Of a DNA stretch of 32,000 nt, positions 445 to 25,022 are shown piece after piece. Each line of letters begins with the position of its first letter. Within the stretch, counting starts at the first letter, position 1. Both the position numbers and the translations under genes were made by a program. The stretch comes from a virus: positions 30,087 through 62,086 of the IMG/VR virus record IMGVR_UViG_3300036768_001582; one strand, 5' to 3'. The notes beneath the pieces are model-generated. The model was not told where the DNA came from. It did no database searches and saw only the letters and a program-made list of their open reading frames with translations.

Positions 445-468
445 GAGGTCAGACCGGAGGTCAGACCG
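445..468 (-). repeat. Tandem 12-nt duplication spanning the capsid-gene stop codon
   Basis: Plus strand gaggtcagaccg occurs twice in tandem (445-456 and 457-468). The minus strand reads CGGTCTGACCTC CGGTCTGACCTC, so GTC TGA occurs twice in the same frame, 12 nt apart. Confidence 0.8.
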
Positions 469-1408
469 TGGTGACGCCCGTGGCCTTCACGACCGCGTCC
501 TCGTGCGCGTACTTGCAGTCCATGCGCAGGGTCGCGACGATGATGAGAACGCCCTCGGAGACGAGCTTGTCCGTCTCGACGCGGATGTTCCGCCAGATGC
601 CGATGTTCACGTTCTTCGGGTCCGTGAGGATGATGTTCGTCGTGTCCGCGCCACCGAGGTTCTCGGGGAACAGCGGGACGTCGACGATGCCGATGCCGTT
701 GTACATCGACGGCACGTCCTGCTCGATGTACTTGTCGCCCCCGACCGTCTGGCGGCTCGTGAGCGCGTCGCGCCACTTGATTTCCGCGTTGACGGACGTG
801 AGAAACTTGAGCGCGCGCTTGTCGCGGAGGAACTCGCTCGGCATCGCGCGAAGCATGTTCCGGAGGACCGTCGTGGAGATGGCGCCGCCGGCCGCGACGA
901 CGTGGCTCGTCGCCTGCTTGATGATGCCGTCGAACTTCGCGAGGAACGGGTCCGCGCTCGTCGTGTCGCCGTTGACGACGACCTCCTCGGTGTCGAGGGC
1001 GATGCGCTCGGCCATCATCTGCATGATGGTCTGGCGCAGCTCCGCGCGCTCGATGTTGTCCTCCAGGACCTCGTTGTCCAGGCGGACCTCGGCCTTGAAG
1101 AGCTGCGCGTTCAGCTCGACCTTCGAGAGGTCGGGCTTGGCGCGGTCACCCGCGGCGAGAGCCGTCGCCTCCGTGCCCGCGCGGAGGATGCGCGAGCCGA
1201 ACTTGATTTTCTCGATGAGCTGCTTGGGGCTGCGCATCGGGACGACCGTGCTCATGCCGAGCACGCGCGACGACTTGATCATGATGCGCATGAACTTCGC
1301 CGCCTGGGCGGGCTGGAGGAGGCCGCCGGAGGTCGTGAGGTCCGCGAGCGCCATGTCGGCCTTCGCGAGGATGCTGCGGTTGTCCGTGACGGGGGCTGCC
1401 ATGGTCAT
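461..1408 (-). CDS. Major capsid protein, HK97-fold (Phage_capsid-like), 315 aa
   Basis: The N-terminal pattern [27 protein letters not shown]...VPMRSPKQ is typical of HK97-type capsid proteins. Size and position after the protease/scaffold genes fit. SD AGGAGAA lies 5 nt before the ATG. Confidence 0.85.
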
Positions 1409-2489: not shown

Positions 2490-4070
2490 TCAAGCCGCCT
2501 GCGTGGCTCCGGTATCGGGTTTCCGAATGGCGGAGCCCCCGATAGAGAATCCGGTGATGTCGCCGCCCTTCACCGCGGTCCAAAGCTCGTCGTCCACGAC
2601 CTTCACGGCCATGACCCACGTGCCCTTCTTGACCGGCGCGCCGTCCACCTCGAAGTCGACGGGTGCGATGAAGGACTCCAGAATCTTCACCTTGTCGTTG
2701 ATGGCGCCCTTGTGCATGAAGCCCATCGTCCGGAATTTCTCCATGAACGCGTGAGCGGCATTCCGAATCTCGTCCGCGGAGTAGATGTCCTGCTGGGCGT
2801 CCACCGTCTCGGGCTCCAGGACGATGCCGTAGACGAAGCGCTCCTCCGTCGTCGCCTTCTCGTCGCCGGCCTTCGCCTTCGCGAAGCGGACGGTGCGCCC
2901 GAGGAACTTCTGGAGCGGGTCGGCGGGCTTCTCGGCCTTCTCCGTCGGGATGCCGCGGAGCGAGACGGGCAGGAGCCCCTTCGTCGCGGTGTCGCGCGGG
3001 TCGGAGCAGCGGTGGCGCGCGACCATCCGGCGCTCGCCATCCTCGAAGAGGACGAGCGCGTTGCCCATCGCCTCCGCGAGGACCTTGCCGACCGCGCTCT
3101 CCCCGGTGTCGGCGGTGACGGTGACCGTCCGGCCGATGATGCTGTCCTCGTTCGCCGCGAACGCTTCCTCCACGCTCGTCGCCTTCACGACGGGGAGAGG
3201 CTCGTCGGCGGACACGAGCGCCTTCGTCGCGCAGTCGCCGCAGACCAGCTCGCGCTCGACGCGCTTCGTGACCGCGTCGGCGAGCAGCTCCAGCGCGCGG
3301 CTCGCGGGCTCGTCGCACCGCTCGCACTTGAACGCGTAGCCCGGGAACGTCGGCCCGGGGTCGGGGAGCCCGAATTCCGTCTTGGCCAGCTCCTCCTCGG
3401 TCGGCTCGTACAGGTACAGCTTCGACACGCAGAGGCGGTGCTCACCGTCGACCATCTTCACGAGCGGCTCCGCGAACAGCTCCATGGAGACGAGCGCGTC
3501 CCGGACGCGGCGCGCGTCGTCGCCCTTGAGCGTCCAGTATCGGAGCGCGTAGGGGACGACGGCTTCCAGCGACGGCGGGAGCGCGGAGCAGCCCTCGGGC
3601 GGCATGACGCCGGCGTCCACGGCCTGCTTCGTGAGCACGTAGGGCACGAGGCTCTTGGCCATCGAGGCCACCCAGCCGTCGGCGCGCCGCTTGAGCTGGA
3701 GGGTGCCGTTACATTCGGAGCCCTTCGCGAGGAAGAACTCACGGAAGTCGGCGGTGGCGATGCCCGGCGTGACCGTCGCCTGGAACTTCTCCGTGTGGAG
3801 GCGCTCCGTCTGGCGCACCGGGTAGGCGCGCGTGCCGAGCGACACCGCGATGGGCAGCGTCTTCGCGAGCCCCTTCGGGATGCCGGTGAGGTCGAATTCC
3901 CAGACCTCGTTGCCGAGGAGCTTCGACGCGACGAGCGGGCCGCACGGCTTCGTCCCCGCCTCCGGCGCGAAGCCGGAGTAGGGAGCCGGGACGAGGGTGG
4001 ACGGCTTCGTCGCGGGCGACGTGGTCGTGCCCGCGGCGGCCTTCTTCGTCTTCGTGCGCTTCGTCGTCAT
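2490..4070 (-). CDS. 526-aa fusion: unknown N-terminal region of about 390 aa (with a CxxC...CxxC zinc-ribbon-like pair) plus a C-terminal XkdF-like putative prohead serine protease domain
   Basis: The C-terminal FVYGIVLEPETVDAQQDIYSADEIRNAAHAFM...FMHKG...ESFIAP...GTWVMAVKVVDDELWTAVKGGDITGFSIGG matches the XkdF/Peptidase_S78_2 pattern as I remember it. SD GAGGAG lies 7 nt before the ATG at 4070. Confidence 0.75.
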   Translation of the reverse strand: MTTKRTKTKKAAAGTTTSPATKPSTLVPAPYSGFAPEAGTKPCGPLVASKLLGNEVWEFDLTGIPKGLAKTLPIAVSLGTRAYPVRQTERLHTEKFQATVTPGIATADFREFFLAKGSECNGTLQLKRRADGWVASMAKSLVPYVLTKQAVDAGVMPPEGCSALPPSLEAVVPYALRYWTLKGDDARRVRDALVSMELFAEPLVKMVDGEHRLCVSKLYLYEPTEEELAKTEFGLPDPGPTFPGYAFKCERCDEPASRALELLADAVTKRVERELVCGDCATKALVSADEPLPVVKATSVEEAFAANEDSIIGRTVTVTADTGESAVGKVLAEAMGNALVLFEDGERRMVARHRCSDPRDTATKGLLPVSLRGIPTEKAEKPADPLQKFLGRTVRFAKAKAGDEKATTEERFVYGIVLEPETVDAQQDIYSADEIRNAAHAFMEKFRTMGFMHKGAINDKVKILESFIAPVDFEVDGAPVKKGTWVMAVKVVDDELWTAVKGGDITGFSIGGSAIRKPDTGATQAA

Positions 4071-5628: not shown

Positions 5629-6699
5629 TCACACGAGCGGGAGGATGGTCGAGCGGCAGTTGCCGTGCAGCGGTGGGCAGGTGCAGCCCTTCGCCTGGAG
5701 CTGCGCGTCGGAGAGGCGCGTGTTGAACGAGCCGGTGTCGTCGAGATTGCCGACCGCGTTATCCACGACGTCGGCGAGGCGGTCGCGCGAGCCGTCCCGG
5801 TTCTTCGTGTAGAGGTACTCCACGCCGTTCTCGTCCTTGCCGACGTTCACCCACGGCTGGATGAAGCGGACGTCCTCGGGGTCGCTCGACGCGGCCACCT
5901 TCTTGTACCGCTTCAGGTCGTTCACGACGTCGAACGTGCGGCCGTGCATGAAGCGGCACTGGAGGCTCGTGACCTCATCCAACACGGCCTCGAACATGTA
6001 CCGCTCGATGCCCGCGTCCTCGTACGCGCGGAGAGAGCCGAACTGCCGCGCGCGCCCCGCGTACACGCTGCTGACCATGTTGTAGTAGGCCCGCGAGCGG
6101 TTCACGTTCATCTTCACGAGCGCGGCTTCAATCTCGCCGCCAATCTCGACGCGGCCGAGGCCGTTCTTGAGACCCTCGGCCACGACTTTCCGAGCCAGCT
6201 CGCTCGCCTTGTCCGCGCGCGCCCCGTATTCGTCGCGGACGTAGTGCGCCTGGGCCTTCGCGGCGTGCGCGGCCACCTTCTTGTCCGTGACGGTGAGGCT
6301 CGCGTTCACGTCGAGCCCGAACGTCGCCTTGGCGCTCGTGCGCGCGCCGCCGGCCACGCGCGTGTACGCGCCCTTGAACGTGGTCTGGATGGCGGGGAGC
6401 ACCGCCTTGGGAGTGTCTTGGAGCGCGCGGTTGGCCGCGCGCATGACCGCTTCCTGCTTCTCTGCCGATGCCGTCGTCCAGTCGATGTCGAGCGCGTCGA
6501 GAGCGCGCGCCATCGCAGCGGCTTCGGCGGGGCCGGTGAGCCCGAGCAGCGCGTCCTGGAGCCGCTTGATGATGACGAGGAAGTCGCCGGGGTCGAGCGG
6601 GTCGAGCGCCTTGCGGACGTCGACGAGGAAGACGCGCTTGAGCACGTCCTCCGCCGCTTCGGCGCCCGCGACGTAGAGGTCAGCCGCGGGGCTCGTCAT
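5629..6699 (-). CDS. Head morphogenesis protein, Phage_Mu_F / SPP1 gp7 family, 356 aa
   Basis: Motifs AGIERYMFEAVLDEVTSLQCRFMHGRTF and the C-terminal CPPLHGNCRSTILP are characteristic of MuF-type proteins. It lies immediately downstream of the portal gene, with a 20-nt overlap. Confidence 0.85.
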   Translation of the reverse strand: MTSPAADLYVAGAEAAEDVLKRVFLVDVRKALDPLDPGDFLVIIKRLQDALLGLTGPAEAAAMARALDALDIDWTTASAEKQEAVMRAANRALQDTPKAVLPAIQTTFKGAYTRVAGGARTSAKATFGLDVNASLTVTDKKVAAHAAKAQAHYVRDEYGARADKASELARKVVAEGLKNGLGRVEIGGEIEAALVKMNVNRSRAYYNMVSSVYAGRARQFGSLRAYEDAGIERYMFEAVLDEVTSLQCRFMHGRTFDVVNDLKRYKKVAASSDPEDVRFIQPWVNVGKDENGVEYLYTKNRDGSRDRLADVVDNAVGNLDDTGSFNTRLSDAQLQAKGCTCPPLHGNCRSTILPLV

Positions 6700-9067
6700 C
6701 GGAGATGGCCGCGAGGACGCCGGGGTCGGCCAGGAGGCTCTTCGCCGCGCGCACGCGCGCCTCGGGGCTCATCTCCGCGCGCTTCGCGGCCATGAACTCC
6801 GCGCGAGCCTGCTTCGACTCCTCCGCGAGCAGCGCGTTACGGACCTGGAGCAGCGCGCGCGCCTTGTCGGCGAGCGACGGACGGAGGCGCCTGAACTTCG
6901 GGCGCTTGCCCTGCGCGGGCTGGAGGCCGCCGGCCTGGGCGAGGTCGGCCCCGGCGAGCGTCCCACCGACGTCGGGGACGTTGTTCGCGCCGAGGTTCGG
7001 GCCGCCGTCGTCGCTCTTCGGCGTCGCGACGGGCTGCGCGGCGGTCGCGTAGGGGTGGCGCGCCGCGATGGCGCCAGCCATCCCCGCGGTCGGCGGGAGG
7101 CCCCCGGCCGGCGGCGGGAAGCCGCCGAAGCCACCGCTGTACATGTACTGCGACACGGTCATCTCGCCGGTCGGGTCCGGCGAGCCGTCCGGGAGCAGCT
7201 TCGGGCCGAGGCCGGCCGCCGCGCGCGCCTCGTTGACCGTGACGACGTTGCCCATCGCGGTCGGCGTGAGGATGCTCTGCGCCGCGGCGTCGTCGGGGAC
7301 CAGCTCGTCCGCTTCGCCGCCGACCCACGGGCCGCGCAGCTCCCCGTTCTCCTCGACCGGGATGCCGGCGAGCGTGAGCTGAACGGGCTGCTTCACCCAC
7401 GCGGCGTCGAGCGTCTTCAGCTCCTTGTTGAAGACCTTTTCGGCAATCTGTCGCGCCTCCTCGGGCGTGATGACGCTCGCGTCGGCGAGGAGCTGGATGA
7501 TGGTCGCGAGCTGCTGCGGGTCCGTCATCGACGGAGCGTTGGAGACGAACTTCCAGTAACGGATGCCGAGGTCGGAGAAGAGCTTGCGGTTGATGAGGAA
7601 GTCGAAGTCCTCGCGCTCGGGGCTGAACACCTGCTGCTCCGCGAATTCGAGAGCGGCCTCCGCCGTCGCACGGTTGAAGTCGCGGATGTCTCCGCGGAGC
7701 AGGCGCGGCATCCGGAAGGCCATGCCGACCTTGTCCGTGTTCCGCTCGTCGTAGTCCATGAAGAGGCCGTCCTTGTTCTGGGCCTCCGTGAGCGGCTTCA
7801 GCTCCACCTTCGCCTGCGCGGCGGCGCCCGTGAGCGCGTTCGCCGCTCCGTCGCTCACCGCCTCGATGATGAGCATCTTGTGAAAGTTTTTCTTCCCCTT
7901 GATTTCCGTCTCGATGTAGCTCTCCAGCCGCTTCACCGACTCTTCGGTCATCCGGCCGCCGGAGACGAGACACGCGAGCGGCGGGACGCTCTTGTTCTCA
8001 AAGTACAGGTAGTTGACCTCTTCGGCCTGGCGCGAGCCGAGCACCGCGAGGAGCACGCCAATCCAGCGCGGCACGCCGTACGACGAGCGCGGCGAGTGGA
8101 CCTTGAAGTGGAGCACCTCGGTGGCCGGCGAGACGCCTTCCTCCGCCGCCTTGAGGACGTCGACGCTCTCGTACACCTTGCCCGTCTTGGACGAGATGAC
8201 GCGCGGGTCCCCATACTCCTTGAAGAACACGGTGGACTGCTCGAACACCTGGACGAAGCGGCGAAACTTCTTGCGCTTGGGCTTCTTGACGTAGGTAACC
8301 TCGGTGGCCTTCACCTTGAGCGTCACTTCCGTCGGGCTCGTGTCCTGCGGCATGAGCCGCATCGTGAACGCCGGCAGGTAGGTGAACTCCGCGACCTCCC
8401 CGAGCCCGTTGCGGAGGACTTCGAGGTAGCCGTTGCCGATGACTTCGAGGTCCTGGCGGAGCCGGCGACGGAGCGCGACGAAGGAGAGGTCCTCGCAACA
8501 GAAGTTGAAGAACTGTTCCACGCGCGCCTTCTCCGCGCGCATCGACTCCGCCATCTCCTGCATCCGAGCGGTGACCTCGTCCCCGTTCGGGTCGACCATC
8601 GTGACGAGCGTGGCGGCCTGCTCGGCGGTGACCGTCGGGTCGGCGAGCGCGGCCTCCCGCTCCAGCTCGATGACGCGAGCGACACGGAGCCGCGCGTCGG
8701 GCGCGTCGAGGTCAATGATGGGCTCGAAACGGTGGCCGAAGCCGTCGATGTTCGTCACGTACGCGTCGACGTTCGGGCGCAGCGCGCTGGAATGCTCCAC
8801 GAGCGCGGTGAGCGTGCTCGGGTTGTACGGCGGCTCCAGCGCTCCGGCGTTGGCGAAGCGCTTTTCCACGTCGTCGACGGTCGGGAGCGCGTTGGACTCC
8901 ATGATGCCGTCGGGGCCGGCGTCCTTCATCACGCCGGCGCGGTCGGCGTCGCGGCCGAGGACGTGGAGCTTCACGATGGCCTCGCGGCCCTCGGTCATCT
9001 GCTCGATGCGCTTCCGCAACTCCTCGGGCTGGAGGAGCGCGTCTCCGGGGAGCGCGGCCGCGGTCAC
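6680..9067 (-). CDS. Portal protein, 795 aa, with a long Gly/Ala/Pro-rich C-terminal extension
   Basis: The N-terminal half (EPPYNPSTLTALVEHSSALRPNVDAYVTNIDGFGHRFEP...) fits the Phage_portal pattern. GTG start at 9067 sits in a GTGA overlap with the upstream stop. A MuF-like gene follows. Confidence 0.88.
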   Translation of the reverse strand: MTAAALPGDALLQPEELRKRIEQMTEGREAIVKLHVLGRDADRAGVMKDAGPDGIMESNALPTVDDVEKRFANAGALEPPYNPSTLTALVEHSSALRPNVDAYVTNIDGFGHRFEPIIDLDAPDARLRVARVIELEREAALADPTVTAEQAATLVTMVDPNGDEVTARMQEMAESMRAEKARVEQFFNFCCEDLSFVALRRRLRQDLEVIGNGYLEVLRNGLGEVAEFTYLPAFTMRLMPQDTSPTEVTLKVKATEVTYVKKPKRKKFRRFVQVFEQSTVFFKEYGDPRVISSKTGKVYESVDVLKAAEEGVSPATEVLHFKVHSPRSSYGVPRWIGVLLAVLGSRQAEEVNYLYFENKSVPPLACLVSGGRMTEESVKRLESYIETEIKGKKNFHKMLIIEAVSDGAANALTGAAAQAKVELKPLTEAQNKDGLFMDYDERNTDKVGMAFRMPRLLRGDIRDFNRATAEAALEFAEQQVFSPEREDFDFLINRKLFSDLGIRYWKFVSNAPSMTDPQQLATIIQLLADASVITPEEARQIAEKVFNKELKTLDAAWVKQPVQLTLAGIPVEENGELRGPWVGGEADELVPDDAAAQSILTPTAMGNVVTVNEARAAAGLGPKLLPDGSPDPTGEMTVSQYMYSGGFGGFPPPAGGLPPTAGMAGAIAARHPYATAAQPVATPKSDDGGPNLGANNVPDVGGTLAGADLAQAGGLQPAQGKRPKFRRLRPSLADKARALLQVRNALLAEESKQARAEFMAAKRAEMSPEARVRAAKSLLADPGVLAAISDDEPRG

Positions 9068-9309: not shown

Positions 9310-9870
9310 CTACCTGGAGAGAGACTCCGAAGCCATCGTCAGTTCACCGACGCGCGTGAGGTACCGCTCCCACGGGAAGTGCGGGCCGGGGTCCCAGTGG
9401 CCGTGCCCCTTGTTGAAGGCGTCGGTCACGTCCTTGTGCCCGCAGAAGCCGCGCTGGCCCATCTGGAGCTGCTCCGGCGTGAGCTTGCACACGGGGATGT
9501 CCCACTTCAGGACGAGCTGCGCGGCGATGACCGCCGAGTGCTCCAGCACCGCGAGGGAGTACGCGTCGAGCCAGTCCTCCGGCTTTTGCCGCGCGTAGCC
9601 CGCGTGTTCGAGGCCGATGCCGTTGCTGTTCGCGCCGGGCGCGTGCCACGCGACGTCGGTGTCCTTCACGCACTGGATGACCTCGCGGTCGTCGATGCAG
9701 TAGTGGGCGCTCGCGCGCGGCGCGTCCTTGCCGGCGAACCACCGCGCGACGTTCCGCGCCGTCCCCGGTTTCTCCGGCGCCTCCATCGTGTGGATAACGA
9801 TGAGGTCGATGCGCTGGCGCGCCGCCGGCGTGAAGTTGCGGGCCTGGATGAAGTCGTACGTGGCGGACAT
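9310..9870 (-). CDS. N-acetylmuramoyl-L-alanine amidase (Amidase_2 / T7-lysozyme-like endolysin), 186 aa
   Basis: Motifs IDLIVIHTMEAP, SAHYCID, AWHAPGANSNGIGLEHAG and GHKDV...HWDPGP. Start re-placed at the internal ATG at 9870 (MSATYDF). The 82-codon ORF-track extension is Arg/Ser/Pro-rich and does not look like protein-coding sequence. Confidence 0.9.
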   Translation of the reverse strand: MSATYDFIQARNFTPAARQRIDLIVIHTMEAPEKPGTARNVARWFAGKDAPRASAHYCIDDREVIQCVKDTDVAWHAPGANSNGIGLEHAGYARQKPEDWLDAYSLAVLEHSAVIAAQLVLKWDIPVCKLTPEQLQMGQRGFCGHKDVTDAFNKGHGHWDPGPHFPWERYLTRVGELTMASESLSR

Positions 9871-9883
9871 GGCCGCCAGCGTA

Positions 9884-10165
9884 TCACGCGAGCGAGAGCA
9901 GGAAGAGCCGCACGCGGTCGGCCGCGCCGGCGGCGTCGAGCGCCTCCAGCGCCGCGCGCCGGTCGGCGTCGTGGGCGAGCGCCGCGAGCACCGCGCGGCG
10001 CGACGGAGCAGGGATGCCGGCGGCTTTGATGAGCTGCTGGGCGCGACCGGCCCACGCGGGGTACCAGAACTGGAGGACGCGGCCTTCGCGCCGATGCTCG
10101 ACGGGGACGCCGGCATCCTGGAGCTTGAGGGCGAGGTCGCGGCACGTCGTGTAGATGCGCTTCAA
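9884..10165 (-). CDS. Hypothetical protein of about 93 aa; start uncertain (TTG 10165 or GTG 10258)
   Basis: Strongly GC-rich third positions through to the stop at 9884. There is no ATG or GTG in frame after the upstream stop at 10206. Confidence 0.45.
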   Translation of the reverse strand: MKRIYTTCRDLALKLQDAGVPVEHRREGRVLQFWYPAWAGRAQQLIKAAGIPAPSRRAVLAALAHDADRRAALEALDAAGAADRVRLFLLSLA

Positions 10166-10990: not shown

Positions 10991-11620
10991 TTACGGGACT
11001 TGGAGGCAGCGCGCGATGGCGGTGAGGATGACCGAGTCCCCCGCCGCGGTGTGCTGCGCCTGGCAGCGGAATGCCTGGCGGACGCCCATGTTCACGCCGT
11101 CGTTGTAGAACGTGCCCGACGTGACCGGGAGTGTGAAGGGATTGCTCGTCGCGCACGAGCCGGCGAGCAGGACGTCCTTGTTGCTGAGGCACGTCGCGTA
11201 GACGTCGGCGAAGCCGGCCTGCGTGAACGCCGGAGACGGCGAGTTGACGGTGTACACCGTCGCGCGAGTCACCTGCGTGCCGTCGGCGCCCGCCGGACCC
11301 ATCGGTCCCGGAGCACCGGGCGGACCGGGAGGACCCATCGGCCCCACCGGACCCATCGGGCCGGCCGGTCCCGGGTCTCCGGGGTCTCCCTTCTCTGCGG
11401 CCGCGCCGTCCTTTCCCGGAGGGCCTGGCGGTCCCGGAGGGCCTGGCGGTCCCATCGGCCCCTCGGGGCCGGCCGGGCCGCTCGCGACGGCACCCGGCGG
11501 CGTGTTCTGCGGCTCGCACGTCGGAGCCGCGAGCGTCGTCGCGGAGCCCGTGGAGCCCGTCTTGTCCGAGCCGCACGCGACGAGCGCGGCGGCGAGAGCG
11601 ATGGCGATGTAGGTGCGCAT
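10991..11620 (-). CDS. Lipoprotein with a collagen-like Gly-X-Y region and a Cys-containing globular C-terminal domain, 209 aa
   Basis: Start re-placed at ATG 11620 with SD GGAGG 6 nt upstream. The signal peptide [16 protein letters not shown] contains the lipobox LVAC. About 21 GXY triplets ([25 protein letters not shown]...[37 protein letters not shown]). TAA stop. Confidence 0.8.
11282..11479 (-). repeat. Collagen-like Gly-X-Y triplet repeat (coding)
   Basis: Two runs of GXY triplets, interrupted by AAAEK, read directly from the translation of 10991-11620. Confidence 0.85.
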
Positions 11621-17547: not shown

Positions 17548-17880
17548 CTACGGGCCGAGGTCGGCGGTGACCTCGACGGTGTTGTACCCCTCGCCGGGGA
17601 AGGTCTGGGGCTTGCCGTCCCCCCACGTCACTTCCCACTCCACGTCGTACTTGCCGGGGGTGTTCGTGTCGCCGACGGCCCACTGGTACTCCACGAGGCC
17701 GGTCTCGGCGTCGACCACGATGGCCGCCGCGCTGACCTTGAGCTTCCCCGTCTTGCACTCGCGCATGAGAAAGCGCACGCCGGTCGCGAACGCGAGGTTG
17801 GCCGCGCTCCCGTCGTCGTAGCCGAGCGACATGCGGATGTACGGCCGCCGGTCGTTGCGCTTGATGGAGAAGTCGGCCAT
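17548..17880 (-). CDS. 110-aa Ig-like protein resembling the BppU N-terminal (baseplate upper protein) domain
   Basis: The pattern KRNDRRPYIRMSL..DGSAANL..ATGVRFLMRE..G.LKV.AAAIVVDAETGLVEYQW..GDTNTPGKYDVEWEVTWGDGKPQTFP fits the BppU_N-type Ig domain as I remember it. It lies directly downstream of the fibre gene. Confidence 0.55.
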   Translation of the reverse strand: MADFSIKRNDRRPYIRMSLGYDDGSAANLAFATGVRFLMRECKTGKLKVSAAAIVVDAETGLVEYQWAVGDTNTPGKYDVEWEVTWGDGKPQTFPGEGYNTVEVTADLGP

Positions 17881-17892
17881 GGGCCGATGGTA

Positions 17893-20800
17893 TCACGCCT
17901 TGGGCTTCGCGCGTCCCTTCGGAGTCGGAGCCGTCGTCGCCTTCGCCGTCGGGCCGAGGACGCTGCTCGCGCGCGCCTTCGACGCGGCTTCGAGGACGGA
18001 CGCGAGCGCCACCGCGCCGAGGACGACGCGAGCGCGCGCCTTGGGCTGGACGAAGATGCGCGCCACGCCCGGCTTCGGAGGCGGCGGCTCAGTGAAGTAG
18101 AACGCCGCACCGTCGATGACGAGCGACGAGAGCGCGAGCTGCGCGGAGCCGGTGAAGCGCTGCTGGGCGAACGCGAGGCCGGCGAACGGGCTGAGGGCGA
18201 GCGTCGCGGTGCCCGTGACCGGCGGCGGGACGTACACGCCCGAGCCGGAGACGTCGAGCGGCGACAGCGCCAGGATGGCCGTGCCGGTGACCGCGCTTCC
18301 TCCGACACCCGCCGGCGAGAGCGACGAGAGCGACAACGCCGCCGCGCCCGAGAACGTCTCCGCGCCCGCCGCGGTGCTCGCGAGCGGCTGGAGCGCAAGC
18401 GAGGCCGTGCCCGTGACCGGGTTGAGCGCGTTGCCGCTCGCCTCGCCGGCGAGGGACTGGAGCGCAAGGGTCGCGGAGCCCGTGAAGCGCTGCTCTGCGG
18501 CCGCCGTGGAATTGAGGGGCGCGAGGGCCAAGTTGGCCGCGCCAGAGAAGGTTTCTTCTCCCGCAGCCGTCGCCGCGAGCGGCGAGAGCGCGAGCGAGCC
18601 GGTGCCCGTGAAGAAGACGCCCTGACCGCCGGCGCCTTCGGCGGAGAGCGGCGAGAGCGCCAGGGTGGCTGCTCCGGTGAACGTCTCGGCGCCCGTGGCG
18701 CTCGCGTCGAGCGGCCGGAGGTCGAGCGCAGCGGCCCCGGCGAAGGTCTCGGCACCCGCACCGGACGACGAGAGCGCCTGGAGCGCCAACGTCGCGGTGC
18801 CGGACACGCCCCACGCCCCGACCGCGTCGAGGCCGAGGGACTTGAGGTCCAGGGTCGCGGTGCCGGTCACCGGATTGGCCACGTTGCCGCTCGCGTCCCC
18901 GAGCAGCGGCGCCAGCGCGAGCGACGCCGTGCCGGTGAACGTCTCCGCGCCGGTGCCCTGGGACGAGAGCGGCGAGAGCGCGAGCGACGCCGTTCCCGTG
19001 AACGTCTCGATGGCGACCGCGCTCGCGGACAGCGGCGAGCACGTGAGCGACGCGGTCCCGGTGACCGGGTTGGCGACGACGCCGGAGCCCGTCGACGCGA
19101 GCGGTTGGAGGTCGAGCGAGCACGTACCCGAGAACGTCTCCGCGCCCGTCGCGGCGGCAGACAGCGACGACGCGGCGAGCGTCGCGGAGCCGGAGAAGGT
19201 CTCGATGCCGCTCGCGGACGACGAGAGCGGCGAGCACGCGAGCGTGGCCGTTCCCGTCACCGGGTTGGCCACGTTGCCGCTCGCGCTGCTCGCGAGCGGA
19301 GAGGCGGCGAGCGTCGCGGAGCCGGAGAAGGTCTCGGCGCCCGAGCCCGTCCCCGACAAGGACGAGAGGGCCAGCGCACACGTGCCGGTGAAGGTTTCGA
19401 GCGCGGTCCCCGAGGACGAGAGCGGCGAGAGGGCGAGCGAGCACGTCCCGGTCACCGGGGGCGGCGTGTTCACGCCGGAGGCCGACGACGAGAACGGCTG
19501 GAGCGCGTGGGTGGCCGAGCCCGAGAACGTCTCCGCGCCGGTCGCGGAGCTGCTGAGCGGGGAGAGCGCGCACGTCCCCGTACCCGTGAAGCGGAGCTGC
19601 CCGGAGCCCGACGACGAGAGCGACGAGAGCGAGAGCGAGCACGTCCCGGAGAACGTCTCGCTGCCGGTCGCGGAGCTGCTGAGCGGCGAGGCGGCGAGCG
19701 TCGCGGTGCCCGTGAACGTCTCGGCCCCGCTGGCCGCGCCGCTGAGGGGCTGGAGCGCGCACGTCGCGGTCCCGGTGAACGTCTCGACCCCGTTCGCCGA
19801 CGACGAGAGTGACGAGAGCGTGTGCGTGGCGGTGCCGATGAAGCGGACCTGGCCGCTCGCGGAGAGCGAGAGCGGCGAGAGCGCGAGCGAGCCAGTGCCC
19901 GTGATGTTGACCGCGGCGGCCGTGACGAATTCCGCCATGGCCCAGCGGTCCACGTCGCGGATGCGCGCGTCCTCCCAGCCCGTCGTGGCGGCCACCATCC
20001 AGAGCGCTACGCCGCCCTGCATGTAGTCCGCGCCGCCCGCGCCGTAGCCGAAAAAGATGTACTGGCCGCCGGCGTTGGGGTTCCCGTCGAGGTTCGCCGC
20101 CGACTGCTGGAGCGTCGTGAGGTCCCCGTCCTTGTGCAGCTTGTGGCGGCCGCGGTCCTGGCGCTGCGTCGTGAGGTGCCACTCGCTGAAGCCGGTGTTG
20201 ACGAAGAGCGCGCGCCCGTCCGCGCCGCCGGCGTCGAAGAACGCGGAGGCGTGCTTCGGGACGCCGCTCTGCTGGACCGCGTTCAAGCCGAGCCAATAGG
20301 CGCTCGTGGACCAGACGCCCTTCGCGTCGTAGCCGAGGGTGGAGCCGACCGTCCACGTGTCGAGCCGCGACACCGTCCAGACGATGGTTCCTTCCACCGA
20401 GCCGGAGCCGTCGGGGGCCAGCGCCTTCTCCGCGTCGGCGATGCCGAGCGAGGGCGCGCCGCAGTTCACGCCCACGCGCGCCTGGACGTCGCGGAGCTGC
20501 TCGTCAGCGCGCTCGTCTTCGAGGACGCCCGCGTAGTATTCGTGGGCGTAGATGTACCCCTCGAACATCGCGCTGAGCGCGTAATTGCCGAAGAGACGCG
20601 GCACGCCGGTCGTGACCTGGACGCCGCCGAAGGCCGCCGACGACCACGCGCTCATCGTTCCACTCGCCGCGTCCCCGACGCGCAGCTCCATCGTCCCCGC
20701 CGTCCCGTCCCATCGAATCTGGATGAGCAGGTAGTTGTTCACGATGACGGACGACGGCGGCATCACCGTGACCATCTGCCAGCCGTCGTTGGGGCCTCCA

Positions 20801-21576
20801 CCGAGGTCGCGGCCCACGCCGTCGTACGCGCCGAACGTCACGCCCGCGTCGTGGACGTGGACGCCGACGTACCCGAGCCCGTCGGAGAAGACGGCTGGAT
20901 TGGAGTAGGGCGACTGCGCCGTGTTCGTGCCGAGCACCGCGGGGAGCGCCGCGAGCGGGTAGACGAGGAACGTGGCGGTGCCGGCCACGCCCGTGGTCTG
21001 CATGAGGTCATCGACGGTGATGCCCGCCGCGTCCAGGTAGTCGTCCACGCCGTCGCCGCGCGGAGCGCCGCCGACGTCGGTGGGCTGGTTGCCCGCGGTG
21101 CCCTGGGTGAAGTCCCACCCCGGCGTCGTGTTCGTTGCCGGCCACGTCGCGATGCCACCCCCGATGGCGTACGCACCCGCGTTGTAGACCTCGGTGATGG
21201 CCGCGGAGATGCCGGAGCGCATCCGGTGCGAGCCGCCGAAGTAGACGTAGGACGAGCCCGCCGGCGTCGTGTCGCCGCCCATCGTCGGGCACGCGACCTC
21301 GGAGACGAAACCGCGGAACGTCCAGCGCAGCGGCACGGCGTCCCCGTACGGCTTCCACGGCGAGATGACCGAGGACTCCCACTTTCGGACGGTGCCCCCG
21401 TTGATGGTGATGCGGGCGCTGTCGTTCGCGTCGAGGATGGCCGCGAAGCCCATCCCAGCGCTCTTGATGGGGTACAGCGACGGGTCGTCCTCCCATGCCG
21501 GACGCTCGACGGGCGCGTGGCCGAATTCGCGCTCCCCGTTGTCCCAGCCCAGGTTCCCCGCGTCGATGCCGAACAT
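17893..21576 (-). CDS. Tail fibre or receptor-binding protein, 1227 aa: N-terminal region, two LamG (Laminin_G_3)-like domains, about 28 tandem 21-residue repeats and a basic C-terminal tail
   Basis: SD GAGGAG 9 nt before the ATG at 21576. LamG hallmarks: PRGDGVDDYLDAAG..., LLIQIRWDGTAGTMELRVGD, FEGYIYAHEYYAGVLEDERADEQL, and a second GGADYMQGGVALWMVAATTGWEDARI. The repeats were read directly from the translation. Confidence 0.85.
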   Translation of the reverse strand: MFGIDAGNLGWDNGEREFGHAPVERPAWEDDPSLYPIKSAGMGFAAILDANDSARITINGGTVRKWESSVISPWKPYGDAVPLRWTFRGFVSEVACPTMGGDTTPAGSSYVYFGGSHRMRSGISAAITEVYNAGAYAIGGGIATWPATNTTPGWDFTQGTAGNQPTDVGGAPRGDGVDDYLDAAGITVDDLMQTTGVAGTATFLVYPLAALPAVLGTNTAQSPYSNPAVFSDGLGYVGVHVHDAGVTFGAYDGVGRDLGGGPNDGWQMVTVMPPSSVIVNNYLLIQIRWDGTAGTMELRVGDAASGTMSAWSSAAFGGVQVTTGVPRLFGNYALSAMFEGYIYAHEYYAGVLEDERADEQLRDVQARVGVNCGAPSLGIADAEKALAPDGSGSVEGTIVWTVSRLDTWTVGSTLGYDAKGVWSTSAYWLGLNAVQQSGVPKHASAFFDAGGADGRALFVNTGFSEWHLTTQRQDRGRHKLHKDGDLTTLQQSAANLDGNPNAGGQYIFFGYGAGGADYMQGGVALWMVAATTGWEDARIRDVDRWAMAEFVTAAAVNITGTGSLALSPLSLSASGQVRFIGTATHTLSSLSSSANGVETFTGTATCALQPLSGAASGAETFTGTATLAASPLSSSATGSETFSGTCSLSLSSLSSSGSGQLRFTGTGTCALSPLSSSATGAETFSGSATHALQPFSSSASGVNTPPPVTGTCSLALSPLSSSGTALETFTGTCALALSSLSGTGSGAETFSGSATLAASPLASSASGNVANPVTGTATLACSPLSSSASGIETFSGSATLAASSLSAAATGAETFSGTCSLDLQPLASTGSGVVANPVTGTASLTCSPLSASAVAIETFTGTASLALSPLSSQGTGAETFTGTASLALAPLLGDASGNVANPVTGTATLDLKSLGLDAVGAWGVSGTATLALQALSSSGAGAETFAGAAALDLRPLDASATGAETFTGAATLALSPLSAEGAGGQGVFFTGTGSLALSPLAATAAGEETFSGAANLALAPLNSTAAAEQRFTGSATLALQSLAGEASGNALNPVTGTASLALQPLASTAAGAETFSGAAALSLSSLSPAGVGGSAVTGTAILALSPLDVSGSGVYVPPPVTGTATLALSPFAGLAFAQQRFTGSAQLALSSLVIDGAAFYFTEPPPPKPGVARIFVQPKARARVVLGAVALASVLEAASKARASSVLGPTAKATTAPTPKGRAKPKA
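18094..19905 (-). repeat. About 28 in-frame tandem repeats of a 63-nt (21-aa) unit; consensus approximately TGTATLALSPLSSSASGAETF
   Basis: Residues about 558-1161 of the fibre. Most units are 21 aa. Seven are 23-24 aa, six of which replace ETF with xxNPV or PPPV. Copies have diverged, with scattered Cys substitutions. Confidence 0.85.
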
Positions 21577-21582
21577 GGGCCG

Positions 21583-22440
21583 CTACTCCTCGCCTTGCGT
21601 GACCTCGCCGTGCATGATGCCCGTGCTCGTCGCCGTCGTCATGATGGTGAAGAACAGGCAAGCGCCCGCCACAACCTTCGGGAAGATATAGCCCATCCCC
21701 TCGCCCTCTTCCTCGGTGTTCGCCGGGCCAAGCGAGTGGACGGGGATGGTCACGAGCGGCTTGAAGACGGTGACGCCGTAGTCGCCAGCGCTCGCCATCG
21801 CGGTCACGCGGTTGATGCTCTCGACGGAGCGCACGCCGCGCGCCGTCGTCGTGTTCGCCGCGAGCGGGAGCAGAATGAGACGCCCGACCTCGGTGAAGCC
21901 GGTCCCGCCGATGACGACGCCGCCCGCGGGGCCGGCCTGCGCCGTCGTCCCTTCGGAGTCGGTGTAGCTGTTGAGGTTCACGGTCCCCGCGGTCGCGCCG
22001 AGGGCCGTGTAAATCTCGACGGCGGCGAGGATGCCGCGGCTCTCCGCGCCAGCGGCGTACCGCGACGGCGCGACGGTGTTCGTCGTGATGACGCCGGTGG
22101 TGAGGCCCGAGAGCGAGCTGATGCCGCTGATGCGGTCGCAGACCTGCACCATCCCCGCGCCCGGCGTGGTGGCGAACTGGACCGCGAGCTTCACGATGCG
22201 CGCGACGCCCGTGCTGTCGCGCATCTGGTTGCCGTTGAGGTCCTGGAGCGCGCCCGCCGTCGCCGACGTGTATGCGATGGCCGTCGCGCCAGGGAGGCCG
22301 CCCTGCGCGGGGTCGCCGGCGGTCCGCCAGGACGAGTAGAGGCGCCCCGCCACCGTCGTCAGCGACGCCTTGGAGAAGGGGTTACGCTGCCACGCGGAGT
22401 CGCGCGCGTCCTTGTACGCCGCGTAGGAGACGAACGGCAC
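21583..22440 (-). CDS. 285-aa virion/tail-associated protein, paralogue B
   Basis: GTG at 22440 with SD GGGAG 6 nt upstream. Clear similarity to the 22695-23552 product (VAGR..S.W...G.P, ATAGAL, E.YT..GAT..T..L.SYTD..G.TAQ.GP..V.G.TGF.E..RLI.LP, ACLF). No family name recognised. Confidence 0.75.
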   Translation of the reverse strand: MPFVSYAAYKDARDSAWQRNPFSKASLTTVAGRLYSSWRTAGDPAQGGLPGATAIAYTSATAGALQDLNGNQMRDSTGVARIVKLAVQFATTPGAGMVQVCDRISGISSLSGLTTGVITTNTVAPSRYAAGAESRGILAAVEIYTALGATAGTVNLNSYTDSEGTTAQAGPAGGVVIGGTGFTEVGRLILLPLAANTTTARGVRSVESINRVTAMASAGDYGVTVFKPLVTIPVHSLGPANTEEEGEGMGYIFPKVVAGACLFFTIMTTATSTGIMHGEVTQGEE

Positions 22441-22694: not shown

Positions 22695-23552
22695 TCACTT
22701 CTCCACGAAGAGCGCCTGGCCGTAGACCTCGGGCGCGGTGGTCGTGTTCGGGTACAGCATCATGAACAGGCACGCGTCGCTGTTCGTGCCGAGGTCGACG
22801 GGGCCACCGGCCTTCAACATGCAATTCCACTGCTCTCCGGCCCCGATGGTCGAAAGCGGCAGCGTCGCGATGCGCTTGAACATCGTCGGCCCGAACGCGC
22901 CCGCGGTGCCCGTCGTCGCGGTGACCTGGACGGAGGCGATGGCGCGGAGCCCCTTGTCCCCGGAGAGTACCGGGAGCGGGATGAGCCGCTGCGCCTCTCG
23001 GAAGCCGGTGTTCCCGAAGACGACGAGCGGGCCGACCTGCGCCGTGTTGCCGGCGTCGTCGGTGTACGAGGACAGCTTGATGGTCGTCGTCGTCGCGCCA
23101 ATCTGGGTGTACACCTCGGCGGCCGCCTCGACGCCCTTGCCGTCGCTCGGGGCGCGCGAGGGAAGCGCCGGCGTGTTCACCGTCTGCGCGGTGATGACCG
23201 TTCCCGACAGGTTGCCCTGCTGGTTGTAGCGGTCGGCGATGACGTACGTGCCGACGACGAGCGACGAGAGCGTGAAGCTCACGAGCCGCTTCTTGGCGCC
23301 GCTCGCGGGAGCGGCTTGGGCGAGCGCGCCCGCCGTCGCGTTCGTGACCGCGGCGCTCGCTCCGGGAGCGGCCGAGGCGGCCGCGCCGGGGCTGCCGTCG
23401 TACTGCCAGAGCGAGACCCAGCGCCCCGCCACGAGCGTACCCGGAGCCGCGCCCGCGACGCGTGCCGACTTGTAGAAGTTCAGCACCTCCGCCGTAGACG
23501 ACGTCGCGAGGTTGATGAGGTTGGAGTAGTCGGTAATCGCCTCACCGGCCAT
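22695..23552 (-). CDS. 285-aa virion/tail-associated protein, paralogue A
   Basis: ATG at 23552. Same length and conserved blocks as the 21583-22440 product. Confidence 0.75.
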   Translation of the reverse strand: MAGEAITDYSNLINLATSSTAEVLNFYKSARVAGAAPGTLVAGRWVSLWQYDGSPGAAASAAPGASAAVTNATAGALAQAAPASGAKKRLVSFTLSSLVVGTYVIADRYNQQGNLSGTVITAQTVNTPALPSRAPSDGKGVEAAAEVYTQIGATTTTIKLSSYTDDAGNTAQVGPLVVFGNTGFREAQRLIPLPVLSGDKGLRAIASVQVTATTGTAGAFGPTMFKRIATLPLSTIGAGEQWNCMLKAGGPVDLGTNSDACLFMMLYPNTTTAPEVYGQALFVEK

Positions 23553-24620: not shown

Positions 24621-25022
24621 TCAGGCCGCCATCGAGACGGAGAGCGACGTCACCGAGACGTTCGCGCCCGCGCTGATGGCGACGGAGTTGAGGATGAGGT
24701 TCGAGGTCGCGGTGCCCACCGAGCCGTCGATGACGCGGACGTTGCCGGACGTGAGGAGCGAGAACCACGTGGCCGTCCCCGTCGCGTCGGCGGAGGAGTC
24801 GGCGGTGATGGCGTTCGCCGTCTTGGACCCGCCCGAGGCCGCCGCGAAGGCGGTGGCGCTCAGCGCCAGCTCCGCGAGCATGACCTGAGAGCTGATGGCC
24901 GTGTCCGCATCCGTCGGCTGGGTGCCGTCGTAGATGCGCAGCTTGCCGCCGTTGAGCACGTCGAGAGCCGCGTCCAGCGCTGCATTGCGCGAGGCCACGC
25001 GAGTCTTGGAGTTGAGAGCCAT
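24621..25022 (-). CDS. 133-aa Ala/Ser/Thr-rich protein, likely virion-associated (first gene of the tail/fibre block)
   Basis: ATG at 25022 with SD GGAGG about 8 nt upstream. Composition and position suggest a structural role. No family recognised. Confidence 0.6.
   Translation of the reverse strand: MALNSKTRVASRNAALDAALDVLNGGKLRIYDGTQPTDADTAISSQVMLAELALSATAFAAASGGSKTANAITADSSADATGTATWFSLLTSGNVRVIDGSVGTATSNLILNSVAISAGANVSVTSLSVSMAA

Follow-up and report, generated by a model that had tools for sequence, protein, structure and literature searches.

A tandem 21-residue repeat of a widespread, unnamed family as the probable shaft of a phage virion fibre

In the triple beta-spirals of the adenovirus fibre and reovirus sigma1, shafts with globular ends are built from short periodic units of about 15-16 residues with one turn, which carry alternating hydrophobic residues and a Gly/Pro turn. 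In curli CsgA, FapC, region IV of the Ca2+-dependent antifreeze protein MpAFP (PDB 3p4g) and the two-partner secretion (TPS) type beta-helices of FHA and HMW1, each rung is formed by one unit of ca. 19-22 residues that combines small residues with alternating apolar positions. In Agrobacterium phage 7-7-1 (PDB 9rkv), dimers of the "garland" protein gp014 attach to both the short and the long tail fibres at the baseplate, and the long tail fibre gp015 has a beta-helical middle domain after its N-terminal anchor (PMC12796354). Here, we analyze a viral DNA stretch of 32,000 nucleotides (nt) from IMG/VR record IMGVR_UViG_3300036768_001582, positions 30,087 to 62,086 (the window), in which a gene for a 1227-residue protein contains a long array of tandem 21-residue units at positions 18094-19905. 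We lean towards reading this array as the shaft of a phage virion fibre, within a four-part protein in which each unit would form one beta-solenoid-like rung and the array and C-terminal tail would be distal.

The array resembles CsgA, FapC, MpAFP and FHA/HMW1 in unit length, small residues, alternating apolar positions and the proposed one rung per unit. However, it has no significant structural match to them (E ≥ 0.34, template modelling (TM) score ≤ 0.32) and no sequence or profile match, its motif (G2, P10, G17, E19, F21) is distinct, and it occurs in a phage virion context and not in a secreted adhesin or amyloid. It likewise shares short periodic units, alternating hydrophobics, a Gly/Pro turn and globular ends with the adenovirus and reovirus shafts, but the unit is 21 residues long with three turn markers and shows no sequence similarity to theirs. 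Like 7-7-1, the window has a gp014/gp012 homologue in the gene module of its fibre. In contrast, gp015 has no sequence similarity to the window fibre, no tandem 21-residue repeat, an insignificant Foldseek similarity (E ~8) and another gene order, and no homology of the repeat family to 7-7-1 gp009, gp010, gp011 or gp015 was detected.

Residues 558-1161 of the fibre map exactly to window positions 18094-19905 on the minus strand. Autocorrelation of identities over residues 559-1161 reached 0.376 at lag 21, compared with a shuffle mean of 0.123 (z = 19.2), and 0.390 at lag 65 (z = 19.7), with further peaks at lags 23, 42, 44, 63 and 86; residues 1-558 showed no lag with z > 4. A hidden Markov model (HMM) of the unit, trained on eleven clear units of the array, found 28 consecutive units. 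Twenty of these are 21 residues long, five have 23 residues (units 10, 13, 16, 20 and 23), two have 24 (units 7 and 26) and the last has 20. The long units stand at every third place (7, 10, 13, 16, then 20, 23, 26) and generate a 65-residue (195-nt) super-repeat; the lag-65 peak arises because every third unit is longer across most of the array. In six of the seven long units, ETF is replaced by xxNPV or PPPV, and unit 20 has GQGVFF. Tandem Repeats Finder (TRF) reported periods of 63, 69 and 195 nt in the array DNA. A preliminary description of this DNA, made from the sequence alone, had counted about 28 tandem units forming half of the protein, with seven units of 23-24 residues of which six had lost ETF. 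The HMM count matches these figures exactly, and the array is strictly periodic.

At the DNA level, 21 copies align to a 98-nt reference at 60-74% identity and the longest exact direct repeat is 33 nt. This indicates an old, diverged array without recent expansion and agrees with the divergence between copies reported earlier. The sporadic cysteines mentioned in the same description were also found, eight in total, at unit positions 4, 6 and 8. An open reading frame (ORF) of 467 codons on the plus strand (18626-20026; G+C content at third codon positions (GC3) 0.96) was rejected as a gene and represents the shadow of the repeat in high-GC DNA.

To place the repeat among known proteins, an exhaustive search of 1.84 billion representative proteins was carried out using a 42-column double-unit profile (A2). 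It matched 372 representative proteins (clusters) at E ≤ 1e-3, 158 at E ≤ 1e-10 and 39 at E ≤ 1e-30. Units of the family share the consensus T-G-T-G-S-A-A-L-S-P-F-A-A-S-G/A-T-G-A-E-T-F, with highest conservation at G17 (88%), G2 (84%) and F/L11 (81%), followed by F21 (68%), A7 (67%), E19 (63%), L8 (62%) and P10 (52%). In the best 150 of the 372 proteins, arrays contain 3 to ~29 units, the spacing between units is 21 residues in 609 cases, 23 in 97, 24 in 40 and 22 in 24, and arrays are almost always placed on the C-terminal side of a variable globular part, with a tail of 30-90 residues after them. Length variation is confined to one site, which lies after G17 and before the next unit begins. 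Across 608 family units, 106 of 121 cysteines occupy positions 4, 6, 8 and 13, which are alternating apolar positions. The window protein shows the same features, namely tandem 21-residue units with G2, P10, F/L11, G17, E19 and F21, a C-terminal array and a short tail. Judged by these matches, the repeat is not peculiar to the window protein and represents a widespread, unnamed family. The preliminary description had considered an array C-terminal to two lectin-like LamG domains unusual. This view has to be abandoned, since members of the family normally have their globular part on the N-terminal side of the shaft and the layout is no anomaly.

That the repeat belongs to no named family, as initially suspected, was borne out by library searches, which included families such as Pfam Phage_fiber_2 and collagen. 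A 345-residue portion of the array had no Pfam match at E ≤ 10, the C-terminal 669 residues had no NCBIfam match, and the repeat matched neither PHROGs nor PDB sequences. The repeat was not covered by any Pfam or PHROG family in 60 members examined; their N-terminal domains included seven Laminin_G_3, two TIG, two Ig_3 and one podophage GP4 fibre-tail adaptor Gp77. The literature yielded nothing relevant on phage repeats of 21 residues or on LamG together with tail fibres and tandem repeats. On present evidence, the array represents an unnamed sequence family of a known type, the repetitive beta fibre shaft, and no new biological principle.

Other searches were less productive. A word-indexed protein search with the full fibre returned only itself and family member P0002 (36% identity over 81% of the length). 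The same search was empty for residues 1-558 and for profile A2 even though P0001 and P0002 are in the database, so that these results were counted as misses and not as absence. Searching 50,697 phage records via tblastn yielded no match for the window fibre or member P0012, where the low-complexity filter probably hides the arrays, and querying viral and genome collections with the fibre protein returned no related loci. A degenerate DNA pattern for GAETFTGTG matched 4 viral and 10 genome loci. IMG/VR viral contigs L002-L005 carry repeat variants, while loci other than L002-L005 and L008 were discarded as chance matches without real repeat arrays. The gene for member P0009 is closely followed by a PG_binding_1 lysis-type gene on a contig that also has TerL and portal genes. 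Members of the clusters are environmental sequences, and the surroundings that were inspected are those of phages.

The only matches to the array family in cultured phages came from Microcystis phages Mae-JY02 and Mel-JY03 and Pseudanabaena phage Pan4, with 33-35% identity over ~240-265 residues to P0009. Two of these proteins bear the annotation glycerophosphodiester phosphodiesterase, and that of Pan4 is listed as a hypothetical protein. The array of Mae-JY02 is likewise C-terminal, but it is made of 20-residue units (GTASGTLDLTGSATGAVRVA) and is preceded by an N-terminal part rich in glycine. This 630-residue protein (L016 5128-7020) carries ~14 such tandem units, related to the family, after the glycine-rich part, and for the array part the enzyme annotation looks wrong. 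Tails following the array differ among family members and are basic in several. Those of P0001-P0150 are very diverse and several have short repeats of their own, with W-containing repeats of 10-11 residues seen in P0009, P0029 and P0061. The P0009 tail also matches a hypothetical protein (gene 14) of ~20 Rhodobacter capsulatus phages.

Three syntenic loci of metagenomic or metagenome-assembled genome origin allow the polarity of the fibre to be assessed: L001 with P0002, L017 with P0004 (NCBI GCA_040384025.1) and L019 with P0003. The closest genome source found is this NCBI assembly, with contig JAWVHG010000367.1. Proteins encoded next to the fibre share 65-79% identity between the window and L001, compared with 36-39% for the fibre itself. 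Within the fibre, identity to P0002 is 77% over the first 40 residues, 39% in the array and 25% in the tail, with regions outside the first 40 residues ranging from 25 to 45%. This is the gradient expected of a fibre anchor and, as the first 40 residues are the most conserved, argues for the N-terminus as the virion anchor and for the array and tail as the distal part. Further, the N-terminal part of the fibre and two 285-residue ORFs encoded just upstream are shared between the window and L001 and are replaced together in L017 and L019, which have unrelated proteins of 321 and 310 residues and unrelated fibre N-termini. The C-terminal 524 residues, in turn, are colinear with P0004 at 46% identity, including the GGQGVFF unit and the tail (40% identical), and show unit-by-unit orthology. 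The two modules move independently, which is the usual mosaic pattern of a tail fibre. No unit-by-unit orthology was found between the window protein and P0002, where any pair of units agrees at ~6.3 of 17 positions as opposed to ~9 of 17 within one protein. Such a pattern suggests that units are homogenised or turned over independently within the arrays. Even so, total copy numbers are similar in three of the proteins, with 28 units in the window protein, 29 in P0002 and ~28 in P0003; P0004 has ~21, so that copy number does differ between relatives, as had been anticipated.

The N-terminal globular part was initially labelled a double LamG, for which we found little basis. Residues 1-558 have no Pfam match even at E ≤ 10, the whole protein has none either, and Laminin G and concanavalin-A-like lectin profiles (PF13385 Laminin_G_3, PF02210 Laminin_G_2) gave no above-gathering match in the N-terminal half. 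Searches of this half against NCBIfam, PHROGs and PDB sequences were empty, as were PDB profile searches with its two domains, D1 (residues 151-372) and D2 (residues 373-558). Using hhalign, both domains were compared with a set comprising the Pfam-confirmed LamG of P0002 and N-terminal domains from four family members. D1 gave a weak alignment (probability 3%, E 0.015) limited to a 41-column C-terminal stretch containing an FxGxI strand motif, and D2 gave nothing (probability 0.3%). An AlphaFold model of residues 1-621, based on a two-sequence alignment, was unusable for fold comparison (predicted local distance difference test (pLDDT) 29.6). A recognisable LamG is present only in P0002 (residues 277-374; PF02210 31.8 bits, cutoff 22.9; PF13385 28.4 bits, cutoff 27.6), where it sits in an extra insert of ~260 residues (residues ~147-400; L001 10001-14464) that the window protein does not have. 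The globular part of the fibre is therefore itself modular. LamG-like folds in the window protein are possible.

To model the array, AlphaFold2 was applied to residues 904-1227 as a monomer with a 42-sequence family alignment of C-terminal segments. The model (mean pLDDT 60.5; 60-75 in the units) predicts that every unit has three short strands (positions 3-8, 11-14 and 19-22), with turns at T1-G2, S9-P10 and A15-G17, and a tail that is disordered except for a helix at 1188-1201. The Foldseek list obtained from the PDB consisted mostly of beta-solenoids (LpxD, tapirin, MpAFP antifreeze, TPS domains, CsgA and FapC) and also contained the 7-7-1 tail fibre. Cysteine positions, the single site of length variation and the exact register independently support a regular beta structure with a buried face. 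Covariation of residue volumes (positions 6-11, r = -0.45; 4-15, r = +0.77, at the protein level) was dropped as evidence because it is confounded by relatedness. The solenoid or beta-helical shaft proposed in the preliminary description thus remains the best available reading, with a low-confidence model as its basis.

Based on these results, the fibre would work as follows. The conserved 40-residue N-terminus would dock it to the particle, probably via the two 285-residue proteins, and would be followed by ~520 residues of globular domains. Each of the 28 units most likely forms three short beta-strands with turns at G2, S9-P10 and G17, and the units would pile up rung by rung into a beta-solenoid-like rod whose apolar core is contributed by positions 4, 6, 8, 11, 13 and 21. 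At 4.8 Å per rung, 28 rungs would give a rod of ~13 nm with a net charge of ca. -20, ending in a +10 tail. Array and tail would be the distal part meeting the host. We have moderate confidence in one rung per unit. The repeat with its statistics, the family, the phage setting, the gradient of conservation and the mosaic pattern are established by the data; fold, oligomeric state, docking partner and the position of the fibre on tail or capsid are what we infer.

Several observations weigh against this reading. Only one of five AlphaFold models of the array reached a pLDDT of 60, the others staying at ~40, and no residue exceeded 90. Foldseek found nothing significant in the PDB (best E 0.34, TM ≤ 0.32) or in BFVD (best E 1.9e-3, TM ≤ 0.36). 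The conserved glutamate shares a strand face with Phe21, which is awkward for a dry core, and no basic residue is conserved as a partner of Glu19. Most phage fibres are trimers, and the array was modelled as a monomer. Long units recur at every third place across the family (29 of 71 intervals, compared with ~9 expected for random placement), for which there is no geometric reason in a single-chain solenoid. Finally, there is no sheath, tube or baseplate gene within the window.

Some of these points would be accommodated by an intertwined homotrimeric shaft, a triple beta-helix or triple beta-spiral as in T4 gp5C and gp12 or the adenovirus and reovirus fibres. Here, the 21-residue unit would be one face or spiral repeat and the chain would be back at the same face every three units. 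The triple beta-spiral repeats of the adenovirus shaft also combine alternating apolar residues with Gly/Pro turns, a likeness we count in favour of this alternative. The placement of long units in both the window protein and the family, and the lag-65 autocorrelation that equals the one at lag 21, fit such a shaft, and a weak monomer model is expected of an obligate oligomer. Further, the characterised tail fibres of 7-7-1 are trimers (PMC12796354). However, the three conserved turn markers (G2, P10 and G17) fit three strands per unit better, the three-unit period could stem from duplication of a three-unit block (TRF period 195 nt), and P0002 and P0003 do not show the strict every-third pattern. 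We consider the trimer possible, if rather doubtful.

The genomic setting of the fibre gene is summarised in Table 1. The window has ~70% G+C and nearly all of its genes are on the minus strand. The fibre ORF starts 6 nt past the end of the upstream ORF, and its stop codon is separated from the next ORF start by 12 nt. The garland homologue matches PDB 9rkv_A (phmmer, E 6.6e-11) as well as the 7-7-1 paralogues gp012 (E 2e-15) and gp014 (E 4e-15), while tblastn against the 50,697 phage records gave no match for it. The fibre gene lies four ORFs downstream of this gene, with a 165-residue ORF and the two 285-residue ORFs in between. The latter are 36% identical to each other and are unmatched in Pfam, PHROGs and NCBIfam, and paralogue a is also unmatched in the PDB. 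A conservation gradient and a gene placed in a module with a garland homologue, in a phage genome, are consistent with a tail fibre. The C-terminal tail has 12 K+R and 2 D+E residues. The ORF directly downstream of the fibre gene is 66% identical to its counterpart in L017, 38% in L001 and 42% in L019, has weak similarity to phrog_1627 (in its N-terminal part) and to Rib/YPDG-type Ig-like repeats, and could be a fibre accessory or assembly protein. The first ~400 residues of the prohead protease ORF had no match.

Table 1. Coordinates of the fibre gene, its parts and other features of the window
Feature	Window positions	Strand	Remarks
Fibre gene	17893..21576	-	1227 aa, ATG start, GC3 0.94
N-terminal 40 residues (MFGIDAGNLGWDNGEREFG...)	21457..21576	-	putative virion-attachment segment; 77% identity to P0002
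Globular domain D1, aa 151-372	20461..21126	-	common to P0002 and P0004 (jackhmmer)
Globular domain D2, aa 373-558	19903..20460	-	common to P0002 only (jackhmmer)
Array of 28 tandem units, aa 559-1161	18094..19902	-	window consensus TGTATLALSPLSSSASGAETF
C-terminal 66-residue tail	17896..18093	-	Pro-rich start TEPPPPKPG, one predicted helix, basic end
110-aa ORF downstream of fibre	17548..17880	-	beside array-bearing fibres in all four syntenic loci
285-aa ORF, paralogue b	21583..22440	-	76% identical to L001 counterpart; putative docking partner
285-aa ORF, paralogue a	22695..23552	-	
133-aa garland homologue	24621..25022	-	phrog_3758 virion structural protein, E 1.4e-27
Large terminase	26706-28358		
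Amidase	9310-10116		
Portal	6680-9067		
Prohead protease domain	2490-4070	-	homology only in last ~120 residues of 526-aa ORF
HK97-type major capsid protein	461-1408		

Some additional features of the window were recorded. A 209-residue protein (10991-11620, minus strand) combines a lipoprotein-type signal with ~70 residues of collagen-like G-X-Y sequence and a C-terminal domain that contains Cys; the related loci L001 and L017 also encode collagen (PF01391) proteins, of 225 and 209 residues. ARAGORN predicted a tRNA-His with the unusual anticodon ATG at 25447-25524 (minus strand), between the terminase and the fibre module.

The link to 7-7-1 raises the question of whether the protein could instead be a capsid (head) fibre, a long flexible filament for first contact with flagella or filaments as in 7-7-1 and phiCbK. 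The sole structurally characterised relative of any neighbouring gene is from 7-7-1, and gp009-gp013 do not appear in the main text of its cryo-electron microscopy paper, where the capsid-fibre protein is left unidentified (PMC12796354). One of these unassigned proteins is gp009 (L022 7313-8740, 475 residues, annotated "structural protein"), whose gene is five positions on from the garland gene. At its C-terminal end it has 4.5 tandem units with a period of exactly 21 residues (APMAEATLDLAINDSAQFIPV...) and then a basic tail (RDRGNKRRGVMVVQTL). Still, gp009 is not detected by the family HMMs and has only period, relative position and basic tail in common with the window protein, and the garland protein binds tail fibres and not capsid fibres (PMC12796354). 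The window protein also has no known capsid-binding motif. A capsid fibre is therefore distinctly unlikely in our view.

A more far-reaching version of these ideas would combine both alternatives. The 21-residue unit would then represent a new fibre architecture, an intertwined trimer returning to the same face every three units, which would explain the 65-residue super-repeat with one longer unit in three. It would serve as an acidic rod binding filaments or cell surfaces in a large group of uncultured phages distantly linked to 7-7-1, and may be of the same kind as the 7-7-1 capsid fibre, which in this view would be gp009-like. We regard this as a long shot. Least credible of all is a flexible low-complexity spacer without a fixed fold that merely separates globular parts: S, T, A or G account for 61% of array residues, AlphaFold confidence is low and HMM and fold libraries gave no match, but the exact 21-residue register, the fixed apolar, Gly and Pro positions, cysteines at 4, 6, 8 and 13 in hundreds of diverged proteins and insertions only between G17 and the next unit's start argue against a disordered linker, which keeps composition and not register.

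In conclusion, fibre shafts built from repeats are already known from phages, and the repeat described here is an unnamed one that recurs in hundreds of diverged clusters, without a Pfam, NCBIfam or PHROGs profile and without a solved or confidently predicted structure. A profile of the repeat would allow recurrent "hypothetical" virion proteins of metagenomic phages to be annotated as fibre shafts and would mark their N- and C-terminal modules as anchor and distal tip. With its strict register, single insertion site and arrays of ~3-29 units, the repeat is also a candidate scaffold for fibres of tunable length. It is thus useful for annotation and a reasonable structural target.

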